A stretch of 64,000 bases of DNA, from the sequence record OM386656.1. One strand, written 5' to 3'. Position 1 is the first letter of the stretch. Every line of letters starts with the position of its first letter. The notes under the pieces were generated by a model. That model made no database searches and was not told where the DNA came from. It saw only the letters and a list, made by a program, of their open reading frames with translations. Of the stretch, positions 37,539 to 63,370 are shown piece by piece. The position numbers and the translations under genes were made by a program. The DNA is from Escherichia phage vB_EcoM_ESCO25.

Positions 37539-37555
37539 TCTTTTCTCCTCTCTTT

Positions 37556-37614
37556 GCGGGGAACTATTCCCCGCTTCATGTGATATATCTTACTCTTTTT
37601 AAGAACTATGTCAA
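37556..37614 (-). promoter_or_regulatory. promoter plus 5' stem-loop unit driving terC (same family as right-end array)
   Basis: On - strand TTGACA, 16-nt spacer, TAAGAT, 12 nt, then GCGGGGAA-TAG-TTCCCCGC, then SD AGAGAGGAG and terC ATG. Confidence 0.6.
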
Positions 37615-37617
37615 CAC

Positions 37618-47338: not shown

Positions 47339-47749
47339 TTAGTTTACATCGTTTAGAGCATTACCAATCTTTAAGATAATAACATCGTTAAGGGCTTCTT
47401 CTCCATTAAGGCCAGAGAAAGCAGGAGTAACGAAAGTTACCATATAATAATGGTCTTCTTGTAGGATTGCGATAACGCCGTCTAGTTTAACATCTCCTGT
47501 GAAACGAAAAACTTTCAACTTTTGTTCTAAAGGAAGATCTCCTTCAACATTTAAAACCATATCTCCAACACCAAACTTTTCTGCCCCGATGTAGATGTAA
47601 GCTTGGTCCTCTTTTTTATGATAATACAGTGTTGCTTGTTTGTCTTGTAGTGTTGTGATACCAAACACATCTACATCAATAATATTTTTCAAAAATTCTC
47701 CTCCCAAATCCAATAATTGTCTACATAAGTAGGATGCCTTTTGTCCCAC
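47339..47749 (-). CDS. hypothetical protein (start uncertain)
   Basis: 136-aa ORF; 5' end overlaps upstream ORF by about 60 nt. Confidence 0.4.
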   Translation of the reverse strand: MGQKASYLCRQLLDLGGEFLKNIIDVDVFGITTLQDKQATLYYHKKEDQAYIYIGAEKFGVGDMVLNVEGDLPLEQKLKVFRFTGDVKLDGVIAILQEDHYYMVTFVTPAFSGLNGEEALNDVIILKIGNALNDVN

Positions 47750-48057
47750 TCTTTTCTAGCCCAAGCCACGGCTGCTATCAATACATCTCCATGACAAGGT
47801 TGAGGGGAGCAGAAGCAAACTAAATCTTTCCCTTCTAGCTCTAATAAATCTTCAAGAGTGATCTTACCACAACGAATTTGCTCCCACAACCACTCTTTAT
47901 ACCTTTGTATAGTTGATCCTCGTGGTTCATCATCTTTTAACTTAAAAGGGTTTGCAAACTTGGAGGCTTTTAGTCCCATGTGTGGCATTGCTCTACCAAT
48001 ATAAACAGCACCTTCTGGGATTGTTTTGCCTAAATGGTAAAAGTTTAATACCTTCAT
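47689..48057 (-). CDS. conserved hypothetical protein (C-F-C-S-P-x-P-C-H-G-D motif, DUF4326-like)
   Basis: 122-aa ORF with GKDLVCFCSPQPCHGDVL motif; family name recalled from memory. Confidence 0.5.
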   Translation of the reverse strand: MKVLNFYHLGKTIPEGAVYIGRAMPHMGLKASKFANPFKLKDDEPRGSTIQRYKEWLWEQIRCGKITLEDLLELEGKDLVCFCSPQPCHGDVLIAAVAWARKEWDKRHPTYVDNYWIWEENF

Positions 48058-49301: not shown

Positions 49302-49499
49302 TTACACTTTTTCCCAAGTACCAAAAGCACAGGAAGGGTAGATTCCAACTTGAGGGTTTCCGTTATCATCTTTGAAAGTAAAACTGTTGTTGTCTTTATC
49401 AAGAACTGTAGAATAAATCTTACCAACAGTAACGCAGTTGGAAGCTTGACCCAGTTCAGTAAGAGTAAGACATTTCATTTTCTGTTTCTTTGTAGCCAT
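49302..49499 (-). CDS. hypothetical small protein
   Basis: 65-aa ORF, SD TAAGGAGAC; own palindrome-flanked promoter upstream. Confidence 0.5.
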   Translation of the reverse strand: MATKKQKMKCLTLTELGQASNCVTVGKIYSTVLDKDNNSFTFKDDNGNPQVGIYPSCAFGTWEKV

Positions 49500-49529
49500 T
49501 TATAAAGTCTCCTTAGTAAGTGAATCTTT

Positions 49530-49572
49530 ATTCTACACAAAGAGCTTTGCACATGTCAAGTAACTCTTTGTG
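49530..49572 (-). promoter_or_regulatory. sigma70-type promoter bracketed by a perfect 9-bp inverted repeat (candidate operator)
   Basis: On - strand TTGACA (49554-49559), 18-nt spacer, TAGAAT; arms CACAAAGAG / CTCTTTGTG (49536-49544, 49564-49572) flank the -35. Confidence 0.45.
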
Positions 49573-49581
49573 AGATTAATC

Positions 49582-49848
49582 TTAATGATTGATGTTGATG
49601 ACGATCTTAGTTTCAACCTTAGCCCAACAGGAATCTGCTTCATTAAAACGACTATTTGCAATGTATTCTCCTGCACGAGAACCTGTTAAGCAAACTGCAC
49701 CTGTATCTGTAGCTAAGTAGTAGTCCCGTTCTTGTTCATTTACTTCTGAGTTGTAGTAATAGAAAACAGACATAGGTTCAATTTCAGATAAACGGTATAA
49801 CTTTGGAACAGGGGATTTCTCGATAAACTCAACAGAAGTTTTACTCAT
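49582..49848 (-). CDS. hypothetical protein
   Basis: 88-aa ORF. Confidence 0.5.
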   Translation of the reverse strand: MSKTSVEFIEKSPVPKLYRLSEIEPMSVFYYYNSEVNEQERDYYLATDTGAVCLTGSRAGEYIANSRFNEADSCWAKVETKIVININH

Positions 49849-50081: not shown

Positions 50082-50211
50082 CTACCGATAAGAACAAGTA
50101 CTTAAATCTCTGTTCTTCGAACATCTAACGATAGAGATTAATCTATTACATAATCTATACTCGCTATCGCTCGACCCTTCGGGGTTAGGGTAGCATATTT
50201 TTTGAAAAAAG
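50082..50211. promoter_or_regulatory. 130-bp intergenic region with nested dyad symmetries and a tetraloop hairpin
   Basis: Dyads CGATAG/CTATCG and GAAGAACA/TGTTCTT; hairpin ACCC-TTCG-GGGT; TTGACT overlapping upstream stop but no well-spaced -10. Confidence 0.4.
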
Positions 50212-58456: not shown

Positions 58457-58521
58457 TTTAAACTTTTTAAGAATTTACAAAAGTGAAAGTTGAAAACCAA
58501 AATTTAAAGTTTAGGAAAATT
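58457..58521. repeat. AT-rich direct repeat, copy 1 (65 bp)
   Basis: About 85 percent identical by manual alignment to copy at 58595..58659; shared core TTTACAAAA.TGAAAGT..AAAA.CAAAATTTAAAGTTTA. Confidence 0.7.
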
Positions 58522-58594
58522 ATCTTAAAATATTAGATACAAAACAAAACTCAAAAGTCAAGGAAAATTTTAAAAATTTTGCGCGCCCACAGTA

Positions 58595-58659
58595 TTTAAA
58601 GTTTTTTTGCTTTTACAAAAATGAAAGTACAAAAGCAAAATTTAAAGTTTACAAAAATT
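58595..58659. repeat. AT-rich direct repeat, copy 2 (65 bp)
   Basis: Second copy; 10 mismatches in 65 positions versus copy 1. Confidence 0.7.
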
Positions 58660-58671
58660 TTTATGCAGGTG

Positions 58672-58790
58672 AAAATGAGAAGAGTTCTCATATGGAAATG
58701 CAAATGATAATGATTCGCATTTAAGTTTATAAATGAGATTGATTCTTATTTAATAAGGTAAATGACAATCATTCTCATTTAGAGAATGAC
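58672..58790. repeat. cluster of AAATGA / TCATTT dyad elements (iteron/operator-like)
   Basis: ATGAGAA-GAG-TTCTCAT perfect palindrome (58675-58691); AAATGC..GCATTT (58696-58722); AAATGAGA..TCTCATTT and TAAATGA..TCATTTA further right. Confidence 0.6.
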
Positions 58791-59009
58791 GCGCAGGGGC
58801 GGTGTTTGTCTCGCGCTCCCGTGTCCCCTCGCCATGTAATAAGAATAACAGATCCAGCCAGGAAAGCAAGCGATTATTTTATCTTTACATTTCTTTACAA
58901 ATATATAGCACCCAGCCTACCGGCGATCAACCTTCCAACCAGTGCCCCCTGGTATGTTAGCCCCGCCTTTACGCCGTGGGGTGGCGCTTCCTCTTCTGTA
59001 TGTAAAACA

Positions 59010-59690: not shown

Positions 59691-59697
59691 AAACTAT

Positions 59698-59756
59698 TGA
59701 CAACAAACAACAACCTGATAAGATGTATCACATAGGGCGGGAAGTGGTTTCCCGCT
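59698..59756 (+). promoter_or_regulatory. promoter-hairpin unit 2 (hairpin type B)
   Basis: TTGACA 59698-59703, 16-nt spacer, TAAGAT 59720-59725, linker GTATCACATAGG, GCGGGAA-GTGGT-TTCCCGC 59738-59756. Confidence 0.6.
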
Positions 59757-59780
59757 CGTAACAGAAGAGAGATTATCATC

Positions 59781-60053: not shown

Positions 60054-60056
60054 GGC

Positions 60057-60111
60057 TTGACATTAACGAATAATTTGTTAATATGTTACATAAAGCGGGA
60101 ATAGTTCCCGC
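60057..60111 (+). promoter_or_regulatory. promoter-hairpin unit 3 (hairpin type B)
   Basis: TTGACA 60057-60062, 16-nt spacer, TAATAT 60079-60084, then GCGGGAA-TAG-TTCCCGC 60095-60111. Confidence 0.6.
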
Positions 60112-60129
60112 TATTTGTAAGGTGGTAGA

Positions 60130-61028: not shown

Positions 61029-61124
61029 ATGATTAATAAAGAAAATAGCTTGACGGTTGGAACGATTAACGCTATCATTCTAGCCGTTCCATTTTGGATT
61101 GTAGTAGCGGCTATTATTTTCTAA
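61029..61124 (+). CDS. hydrophobic micro-protein (31 aa)
   Basis: Promoter-hairpin unit then SD AAGAGG then ATG; single TM-like segment; below track cutoff. Confidence 0.4.
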   Translation: MINKENSLTVGTINAIILAVPFWIVVAAIIF

Positions 61125-61132
61125 AAATATTC

Positions 61133-61193
61133 TTGACAACGTTTTTTAATCTGATAAGATGTATCACATAGGGCGGCGGAATACTTCCCCGCC
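61133..61193 (+). promoter_or_regulatory. promoter-hairpin unit 5 (hairpin type C, bulged)
   Basis: TTGACA 61133-61138, 16-nt spacer, TAAGAT 61155-61160, linker GTATCACATA, GGCGGCGGAA-TAC-TTCCCCGCC 61172-61193. Confidence 0.6.
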
Positions 61194-61214
61194 AAAACAA
61201 AAAAGGGTAACACA

Positions 61215-61577: not shown

Positions 61578-61582
61578 AACGG

Positions 61583-61639
61583 TTGACACTGTTTAAAATT
61601 CTGGTATAGTTTATCACGTAGGGCGGCAATGGTGCCGCC
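61583..61639 (+). promoter_or_regulatory. promoter-hairpin unit 6 (hairpin type A)
   Basis: TTGACA 61583-61588, 16-nt spacer, TATAGT 61605-61610, 10 nt, GGGCGGC-AATGGT-GCCGCC 61621-61639. Confidence 0.6.
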
Positions 61640-61659
61640 AACAATAAAAGGTTAACATC

Positions 61660-61839: not shown

Positions 61840-61858
61840 AAGTTTTAGTCTTATACTA

Positions 61859-61910
61859 TTGACAATGAGTGATAGTATAAGCATAATAACTTTTATCGGG
61901 AATACTTCCC
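61859..61910 (+). promoter_or_regulatory. promoter-hairpin unit 7 (degenerate hairpin)
   Basis: TTGACA 61859-61864, 17-nt spacer, CATAAT 61882-61887, then weak GGGAA-TAC-TTCCC 61898-61910. Confidence 0.5.
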
Positions 61911-62302: not shown

Positions 62303-62308
62303 AAAGCA

Positions 62309-62371
62309 TTGACAGCACGAATAAAAAGAGTAAACTGTATTACATCAAGGCGGCGGAATGGTCCACCGCCT
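62309..62371 (+). promoter_or_regulatory. promoter-hairpin unit 8 (hairpin type C)
   Basis: TTGACA 62309-62314, 16-nt spacer, TAAACT 62331-62336, linker GTATTACATCA, AGGCGGCGG-AATGGT-CCACCGCCT 62348-62371. Confidence 0.6.
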
Positions 62372-62394
62372 AACAAAGAGAAGAGGAAAACATC

Positions 62395-62565: not shown

Positions 62566-62603
62566 TTGACTTTTCGTTATAGCGCCTTATAATGGGCGCT
62601 ATA
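62566..62603 (+). promoter_or_regulatory. promoter unit 9 with inverted repeat enclosing the -10 box
   Basis: TTGACT 62566-62571, 16-nt spacer, consensus TATAAT 62588-62593; 9-bp arms TATAGCGCC (62578-62586) and GGCGCTATA (62595-62603) flank the -10. Confidence 0.6.
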
Positions 62604-62858: not shown

Positions 62859-62861
62859 AGC

Positions 62862-62918
62862 TTGACACGGATTTAATTTTTAGTAAACTGTTACACGTAG
62901 GGCGGGAATAGTTCCCGC
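62862..62918 (+). promoter_or_regulatory. promoter-hairpin unit 10 (hairpin type B)
   Basis: TTGACA 62862-62867, 16-nt spacer, TAAACT 62884-62889, linker GTTACACGTAGG, GCGGGAA-TAG-TTCCCGC 62902-62918. Confidence 0.6.
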
Positions 62919-62937
62919 TCAAAAAGAGAGAAAGACC

Positions 62938-63291: not shown

Positions 63292-63297
63292 TAAACC

Positions 63298-63351
63298 TTG
63301 ACAATTTTACAAAACAGTTTAAATTAACAATATAGCGGCAATGGTGCCGCT
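63298..63351 (+). promoter_or_regulatory. promoter-hairpin unit 11 (hairpin type A variant)
   Basis: TTGACA 63298-63303, about 16-nt spacer, TAAATT-like -10, then AGCGGC-AATGGT-GCCGCT 63334-63351. Confidence 0.55.
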
Positions 63352-63370
63352 CATATGAAGAGGAAACAAA

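Follow-up and report, generated by a model that had tools for sequence, protein, structure and literature searches.

Genomic context and anatomy of the locus

The DNA analysed in our study is a stretch of 64,000 nucleotides from Escherichia phage vB_EcoM_ESCO25 (OM386656.1), called the window hereafter, and positions refer to it unless another genome is named. The source genome belongs to Phapecoctavirus (subfamily Stephanstirmvirinae; ~150-kb myoviruses, phAPEC8-like) and is kin to ESCO13, and the 2-kb stretch around the repeat described here was found to share 99.8% identity with Escherichia phage ESCO13 and its close kin. A leftward block of small genes occupies the minus strand between a divergent promoter region near 51.9 kb and a DNA helicase gene. 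The repeat is located inside this early, ORFan-rich block, where all the genes around the site are annotated as 'hypothetical', in an 82-bp gap (49500-49581) between a gene of 88 codons and a gene of 65 codons (Table 1). Sequence searches against Pfam, PHROGs, NCBIfam and the PDB gave no functional assignment for the flanking small proteins. The homologue of the 88-residue protein in phage EF1-1 (L003 1785-2054) is labelled 'ImcB' in one GenBank record, a name for which no source was found in the literature. Further downstream, a 122-residue protein (47689-48057, minus strand) carries a DUF4326 domain (E = 1e-21); it is named 'NrdA-like ribonucleotide reductase' in some phage records, a label to which the domain match lends no support.

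The gap contains a perfect 9-bp inverted repeat, which was recovered both by reading the sequence and by a repeat finder: CACAAAGAG at 49536-49544 pairs at every position with CTCTTTGTG at 49564-49572 (100% complementarity), and 19 nt separate the two arms. As the initial annotation had stated, the arms bracket the -35 hexamer, since on the minus strand TTGACA (49559-49554) is enclosed by both of them. No exact copy of the 9-mer other than these two arms was found in the window. In the direction of transcription, the far arm (49572-49564) starts 9 nt past the TAA of the 88-residue gene and is followed by the 4 nt TTAC, the -35 hexamer, 9 further nt and the near arm, which directly abuts TAGAAT; the arms thereby enclose the -35 hexamer and half of the 18-nt spacer, and their centres are 28 bp, or about 2.7 helical turns, apart. 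After the -10 hexamer come ~15 nt, then AAGGAG and the ATG. An Rfam search at a permissive threshold gave no match at the site. The -10 region (49527-49537, TGTAGAATAAA on the minus strand) also has a perfect 11-nt complement at 49407-49417, within the 65-residue ORF and 109 nt downstream, and this 11-nt pairing would be possible only in read-through RNA.

Table 1. Features of the locus in the order of transcription, with positions in the window
Feature	Position	Strand	Description
Upstream gene	49582..49848	-	88 aa; ESCO13_00243, phrog_24836; no assigned function
Stop codon of the 88-aa gene	49584-49582	-	TAA, within ATCATTAAGATTAATCT
Extended predicted RNA hairpin of read-through transcripts	49532..49575	-	TCT + CACAAAGAG(UU) ... 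(AG)CUCUUUGUG + bulged U + AGA
5' arm	49564..49572	-	Read as CACAAAGAG on the coding strand; about -49 to -41 from the predicted start site
-35 hexamer	49554..49559	-	TTGACA; in the hairpin loop
3' arm	49536..49544	-	Read as CTCTTTGTG on the minus strand; last 9 nt of the promoter spacer, adjoining the -10 hexamer
-10 hexamer	49530..49535	-	TAGAAT; 18-nt spacer, without an extended -10 TG
Predicted transcription start region	49521..49525	-	Within ATTCAC, 5-9 nt past the -10 hexamer; predicted from the sequence and from comparison with cassettes
Shine-Dalgarno of the 65-aa ORF	49509..49514	-	AAGGAG; from sequence; ribosome binding site annotated at the equivalent place in ESCO13
ATG of the 65-aa ORF	49499-49497	-	
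Downstream gene	49302..49499	-	65 aa; ESCO13_00242, phrog_27862; no assigned function
Swapped module	49515..49844	-	blastn boundaries 49514 and 49845

The region has been exchanged as a block among relatives. Between 49515 and 49844 no nucleotide homology with phiWec179/188 was detectable, while the flanks are 71-79% identical. The 330-bp block that is replaced consists of the 88-residue gene and the promoter/hairpin region, and phiWec179/188 have in its place 599 bp with a 178-residue gene and a different promoter/hairpin. The replacement has an imperfect repeat of its own over the -10 hexamer, TTGTATTCT-gat-AGAATGCAA (-12 kcal/mol, z -1.8).

The probable promoter in front of the 65-residue gene

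The promoter that had been assigned to ORF 49302..49499 is well supported by its sequence, with 11 of the 12 sigma-70 consensus positions matched. Matches of at least 11/12 were found 13 times in the window as against 3.2 +/- 1.3 expected (about four-fold), and 6 of the 13 fall in the 6.8% of the DNA that is non-coding; as a class, sigma-70 matches of this quality show a ~30-fold enrichment in non-coding DNA. The divergent B-type intergenic sequence of the phiWec179/188/PsgM04F lineage carries TTGATC-N17-TAGAAT at the same place. Past the -10 hexamer, the ATTCAC resembles the ATCAC start region common to the repeated promoter cassettes of this phage, and the AAGGAG Shine-Dalgarno with its ATG lies downstream of the promoter. 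For Phapecoctavirus and Stephanstirmvirinae, literature searches returned neither mapped transcript starts nor RNA-seq data. The host sigma-70-type promoter TTGACA-N18-TAGAAT is, in our assessment, very likely to be real, and its activity and start site are predicted here from these sequence features.

Predicted folding of the repeat and its variation among relatives

On the sense strand the repeat was predicted to fold as RNA with -12.6 kcal/mol (37 nt, z -2.85), and with its flanks included the energy reaches -16.3 kcal/mol (55 nt, z -3.5), a value equalled by none of 200 shuffled sequences. The 9-bp stem becomes 11-14 pairs as RNA and is weaker than most hairpins of its class.

Twenty relatives with the A-type intergenic sequence were compared. 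All 20 of them agree throughout the near arm and both hexamers and over most of the loop. The outermost base of the far arm (49572) is C in the ESCO13 clade only and G in 17/20 relatives, so that the usual repeat has 8 bp; with this common G allele the stem is kept in the sense RNA through a G.U pair. In phage nepoznato a C within the far arm has also become T (C-to-U in RNA, giving G.U) and an adjacent T has become C, which turns U.G into C-G; both changes preserve the pairing of the sense strand. The sense energies of the variants are -16.3 kcal/mol in the window, -13.8 for the common G allele, -14.3 for nepoznato, -13.9 for ZCKP1 and -10.9 kcal/mol for UP17, and for each of the six sequence variants the predicted fold of the sense strand is more stable than that of the antisense strand. 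This pattern favours a stem formed by the sense-strand RNA, in a manner that is suggestive only, as the substitutions are few and the conservation is not above that of the flanking genes. For the A-type relatives, differences in the region are confined to 1-3 positions, and the B-type sequence is without the repeat, both of which were counted against the cassette reading that is proposed below. An exact 27-mer search of IMG/VR gave no match, and protein-anchored searches of IMG/VR and metagenomes returned the same two intergenic types only and no new ones; the support from covariation is consequently limited to the two sister elements described in the next section.

Promoters and hairpins elsewhere in the phage

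A census of promoters was made in DIJ07P1, a complete 143-kb relative (97.5% identical), with 22 intergenic, co-oriented sigma-70-like sites and, as controls, 82 promoter-like sites inside genes. A hairpin of -10 kcal/mol or better within 45 nt accompanies 17 of the 22 intergenic promoters as compared to 21 of the 82 coding-located controls (Mann-Whitney p = 3e-6). These hairpins take three positions, namely a GC-rich terminator immediately before the -35 hexamer, a stem over the promoter boxes and a stem after the start, the commonest being a GC-rich stem a few nt past the start site. With no other hairpin in the 49500-49581 gap, the repeat occupies the place that a hairpin has in most such gaps.

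Two further promoters in the window are straddled by a perfect repeat. At 61850-61881 (plus strand), CTTATACTAT and ATAGTATAAG form a 10-bp repeat which encloses the -35 hexamer TTGACA and abuts the -10 hexamer CATAAT. Its counterpart in Justusliebigvirus alia and inny, CTTGTGCTAT/ATAGTACAAG, differs by an A-T to G-C double change and a G.T wobble; all six substitutions in the 64-nt alignment are inside the hairpin, and the hexamers and flanks are unchanged. At 62578-62603 (plus strand), TATAGCGCC and GGCGCTATA form a 9-bp repeat enclosing the -10 hexamer TATAAT, and in PsgM04F a compensatory T-A to A-T change was found, with the hairpin kept and the promoter hexamers absent. The substitutions in these alignments indicate that both hairpins are under structural selection.

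A repeated early-promoter cassette was also observed at 37539-37617 on the minus strand and at 59691-59780, 60054-60129, 61079-61214, 61578-61659, 62303-62394, 62859-62937 and 63292-63370 on the plus strand. Its layout is TTGACA, 16-17 nt, TAAGAT/TAAACT/TATAGT, (gt)ATCACATAG, a hairpin and a Shine-Dalgarno, where the hairpin is GC-rich (GGGCGGGAA..TTCCCGCCC) and lies a few nt past the predicted start. These cassettes are mutually similar and lie between small ORFans, and by sequence they are the best repeat family in the genome resembling the promoter-early stem-loops (PeSLs) that are discussed in the last section. Approximately 600 nt upstream of the repeat, the 130-nt gap at 50082-50211 (minus strand) has TTGACT-N17-TACCCT followed by the hairpin AACCCCGAAGGGT, and this gap possibly represents the promoter-plus-5'-hairpin design in a weak form.

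The repeat in relation to chance

With arms of at least 9 and loops of 3-30 as the counting criteria, the window holds 18 nine-mer matches that make up 12 distinct inverted repeats, as against 11 +/- 4 in simulated sequence; taken window-wide and by itself, the repeat is not more than chance would provide. Of the 12 distinct repeats, 6 are in non-coding DNA, which accounts for ~7% of the window. In the census, a perfect repeat of at least 8 bp over the core promoter was found at 3 of the 22 intergenic sites and at 1 of the 82 controls (Fisher p = 0.03). After shuffling of the non-hexamer bases, 0.47 promoters were expected with at least 8 bp (three or more: P about 0.02) and 0.13 with at least 9 bp. 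The repeat is thus, in its promoter context, moderately beyond chance. By the same shuffling, finding one or more repeats of at least 8 bp among the 22 promoters has a chance probability of P = 0.38, because of which this single repeat could still be a product of chance, and the repeat at 49536-49572 is the weakest among the three that straddle promoters.

An explanation by chance, or as a mutational by-product, would take the promoter as real and the repeat as having no function of its own. The 8-bp complementarity would have arisen in the AT-rich spacer and the region upstream, and one G-to-C change in the ESCO13 clade would have added the ninth base pair, perhaps by template switching at a quasi-palindrome. 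The ordinary number of such repeats across the window and the P value of 0.38 agree with this, but, as a class, repeats over promoters and hairpins beside promoters show clear enrichment, and two sister elements are under structural selection. The complementarity is of 8 bp only in 17/20 relatives, is absent from the B-type sequence and lies in intergenic DNA conserved no more highly than the flanking genes, yet a sense-strand stem of -10.9 to -16.3 kcal/mol is kept in all the variants. Similarly, the hairpin stands at the weak end of its class, but it is the only one in a gap of the kind that has a hairpin in 17 of 22 cases. On balance, a by-product of this sort is plausible, though less probable than the cassette reading proposed below.

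Operator and DNA-level explanations

The initial annotation had proposed that the repeat has the geometry of an operator for a dimeric DNA-binding protein and is a regulated switch point in the minus-strand gene block. A dimeric protein of the phage or the host would, in that case, bind the 9-bp half-sites at about -45 and -17 and occlude RNA polymerase; in a variant of the idea, the regulator would be the adjacent 88-residue ORFan, moving with its site as one module. The symmetry is perfect, flanks the -35 hexamer and abuts the -10 hexamer, the arms are placed where a bound protein would be expected to block RNA polymerase, and the upstream gene and the site are replaced together. However, the operator did not find support in our study, as the dyad is unique, its symmetry is lost in relatives and no DNA-binding domain was recognised nearby. 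The regulated switch found no support either, and two other promoters are straddled with this geometry by unrelated arms that covary in the manner of RNA.

The uniqueness of the dyad was established with searches allowing a spacing of 10-30 nt and up to three mismatches. In the window the search returned the site itself only, and in the 143-kb DIJ07P1 genome it gave a single three-mismatch match, in line with the 1.7 expected under the null, so no copy beyond chance was found; the lack of further copies is among the outcomes that the initial annotation had listed as counting against it. Half-sites with one mismatch in other intergenic regions turned out to be purine-rich AAAGAG Shine-Dalgarno stretches, and a shared operator motif was rejected, the half-site matches elsewhere being Shine-Dalgarno-like purine runs. 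The 28-bp spacing from centre to centre is also atypical, if conceivable, for a simple dimer, where the half-site centres usually lie about one to two helical turns apart. In most relatives the symmetry is broken by changes in the far arm while the RNA pairing of the sense strand is kept, and the identical geometry at the two other promoters is built from unrelated sequences.

As for a regulator, no match in Pfam, NCBIfam, the PDB or the PHROG functions pointed to DNA binding in the neighbours, and among 10 neighbouring small proteins no DNA-binding domain was found with Pfam, NCBIfam and annotated PHROGs. Single-sequence AlphaFold models of the 88-residue and 65-residue proteins (pLDDT 45 and 54, too poor for fold searches) are mostly beta-strand and not helix-turn-helix, which is weak evidence at this low confidence. 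Inspection by eye showed no consensus-spaced match to host CRP or IHF sites. In comparison with the classical dyad operators (lac O1, lambda OR/OL and BirA bioO), the likeness consists of an inverted repeat that overlaps the core promoter, whereas here 28 bp separate the centres of the half-sites, the dyad is present only once, no cognate regulator was identified and the symmetry is not conserved in relatives. An operator with widely spaced arms does exist in BirA bioO. Taken together, an operator at 49536-49572 appears quite improbable.

A much stronger candidate for an operator, an iteron or an origin than this repeat was observed in another part of the window. The non-coding, AT-rich gap of 319 bp at 58487-58805 (plus strand) contains at 58674-58779 four copies of the 19-bp dyad AATGAGAATnATTCTCATT, which start at 58674, 58703, 58732 and 58761 with a spacing of exactly 29 bp and have 1-3 mismatches each (0.11 expected by chance). 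The 7-1-7 core of this dyad resembles a Fur box. AAATTTAAAGTTT occurs three times as a direct repeat in the same gap, which also contains TTTTGCTTTT/AAAAGCAAAA as an inverted repeat (58605-58640).

At the level of DNA, a cruciform or single-strand hairpin that tunes the promoter with supercoiling, or a preferred crossover point for module exchange, is very improbable, for although a module boundary lies within the 49500-49581 gap and recombination within PeSL stem-loops has been reported for RB49 (PMC2839356), homology with phiWec188 breaks off at 49514, close to the Shine-Dalgarno and outside the repeat, no repeated homologous copy is present elsewhere to recombine with, and the DNA fold has only -6 to -7 kcal/mol (z-scores -1.5 to -2.1), an energy which together with the 19-nt loop and the AT-rich 9-bp stem makes cruciform extrusion unfavourable. 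The cruciform was rejected on this low folding energy and long loop.

Proposed role in read-through transcripts

The reading that we favour, with a rough probability of 0.45, is that the repeat specifies an RNA hairpin of read-through transcripts, which belongs to a promoter-plus-stem-loop cassette and is swapped together with the upstream ORFan gene. It builds on the anatomy of the sequence, the statistics, the association of promoters with hairpins across the class, the covariation in the two sister elements and the module swap. According to this model, the promoter at 49530-49559 would re-initiate early transcription for the 65-residue gene and the genes after it. Because both arms are upstream of the predicted start site, the hairpin would be contained only in RNA that reads through from promoters further upstream, where it would sit 9 nt past the stop codon of the 88-residue gene. 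If it forms in vivo, it may slow or partly stop the read-through as an attenuator and/or block 3' exonucleases, thereby delimiting the upstream unit, and the embedded promoter would then begin the next transcription unit.

Any effect of the hairpin on read-through is probably modest. Strong termination is unlikely, since the stem is AT-rich, lacks a U-tract and was not called by the terminator scan, in which the stem at 49530-49572 gave no hit. An intrinsic terminator was rejected for either strand, as a T-run is missing and the hairpin is weak: it has 3 G-C pairs in its 9-bp stem, a 19-nt loop and UAGAAUAAAGAUU after the stem.

More broadly, and tentatively, it can be speculated that Stephanstirmvirinae (phAPEC8- and alia-like) have a promoter-plus-stem-loop system of their own, analogous to the T4-type PeSLs, in which straddling hairpins would insulate the early units in read-through RNA and the cassettes would move with the upstream ORFan; 49515-49844 would then be one such module and the repeat an RNA element, not an operator. 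If this is true, the promoter-plus-hairpin design is not peculiar to T4-type phages and has arisen convergently in another lineage of large coliphages, one that is widely used in phage-therapy cocktails. It would also mean that early transcription is partitioned into units, and that ORFan genes can be swapped with their own regulatory signals. For annotation, the implication is that inverted repeats over phage promoters should not be taken as operators by default. For this site itself the practical consequence is small, namely a probable internal early promoter for small genes of unassigned function, and 49530-49572 looks like one of many promoter-plus-hairpin cassettes of this phage and is in that respect fairly ordinary.

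Comparison with known systems

Two other known arrangements share features with the locus. The combination of a Rho-independent terminator and a promoter is common in the same phage (window 23303-23394; DIJ07P1 107229-107257), and like the locus it has a hairpin between the end of a gene and the start site of the next unit. Those hairpins, however, are GC-rich and short-looped, have a T-run behind them and precede the -35 hexamer, whereas the repeat described here has none of these features and encloses it. The stem-loops at the internal-protein (IP) loci of T-even phages, which were called PeSL analogues (PMC2839356), are similar in having weaker, AT-rich stems of variable size, and they are found beside early promoters, flanking small variable genes (PMC2839356). 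They differ in that T4-type early promoters of T-even phages are involved, and they have no sequence relationship to 49530-49572.

The closest comparison is with the PeSL (promoter-early stem-loop) of the T4-type phages RB49/phi1, PST/T4 and nt-1/KVP40 (Arbiol et al. 2010, PMC2839356; Comeau et al. 2014, PMC4122927). A PeSL is an intergenic cassette with a sigma-70-like promoter which lies beside ORFans and is implicated in module exchange; its stem-loop can precede the -35/-10 boxes, lie between them, overlap them or follow shortly after them (PMC2839356, PMC4122927). G-T pairs are allowed in the stem-loops, which are found next to ORFans and indels (PMC2839356). The locus resembles this description in several respects. 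It is intergenic and AT-rich, starting at the stop codon upstream and ending with a Shine-Dalgarno and ATG; its promoter is, judged by sequence alone, near the sigma-70 consensus (11/12); a stem-loop of -12.6 to -16.3 kcal/mol (z -2.9 to -3.5) is predicted over the boxes; and small ORFans of unassigned function lie on both sides, with replacement between relatives.

It departs from the PeSLs in that this copy, although the architecture recurs in the genome, is not part of a set of similar repeats: its arms are unique, the ~100-bp similarity to other cassettes is absent, and the GGGCGG...CCGCCC hairpin of the repeated cassettes is missing from 49530-49572. The stem is also AT-rich with a long loop, whereas the RB49/phi1 stems have the form G(n)...C(n), and the phage that carries it is a Stephanstirmvirinae myovirus and not T4-like. 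Since this copy has no similar counterparts, the activities are predicted and the subfamily is a different one, we have placed the locus as PeSL-like and not within the sequence families of the T4-type PeSLs. From the comparison as a whole, the promoter and hairpin at 49530-49572 are a probable new member of the PeSL kind, and would be expected to work like one.
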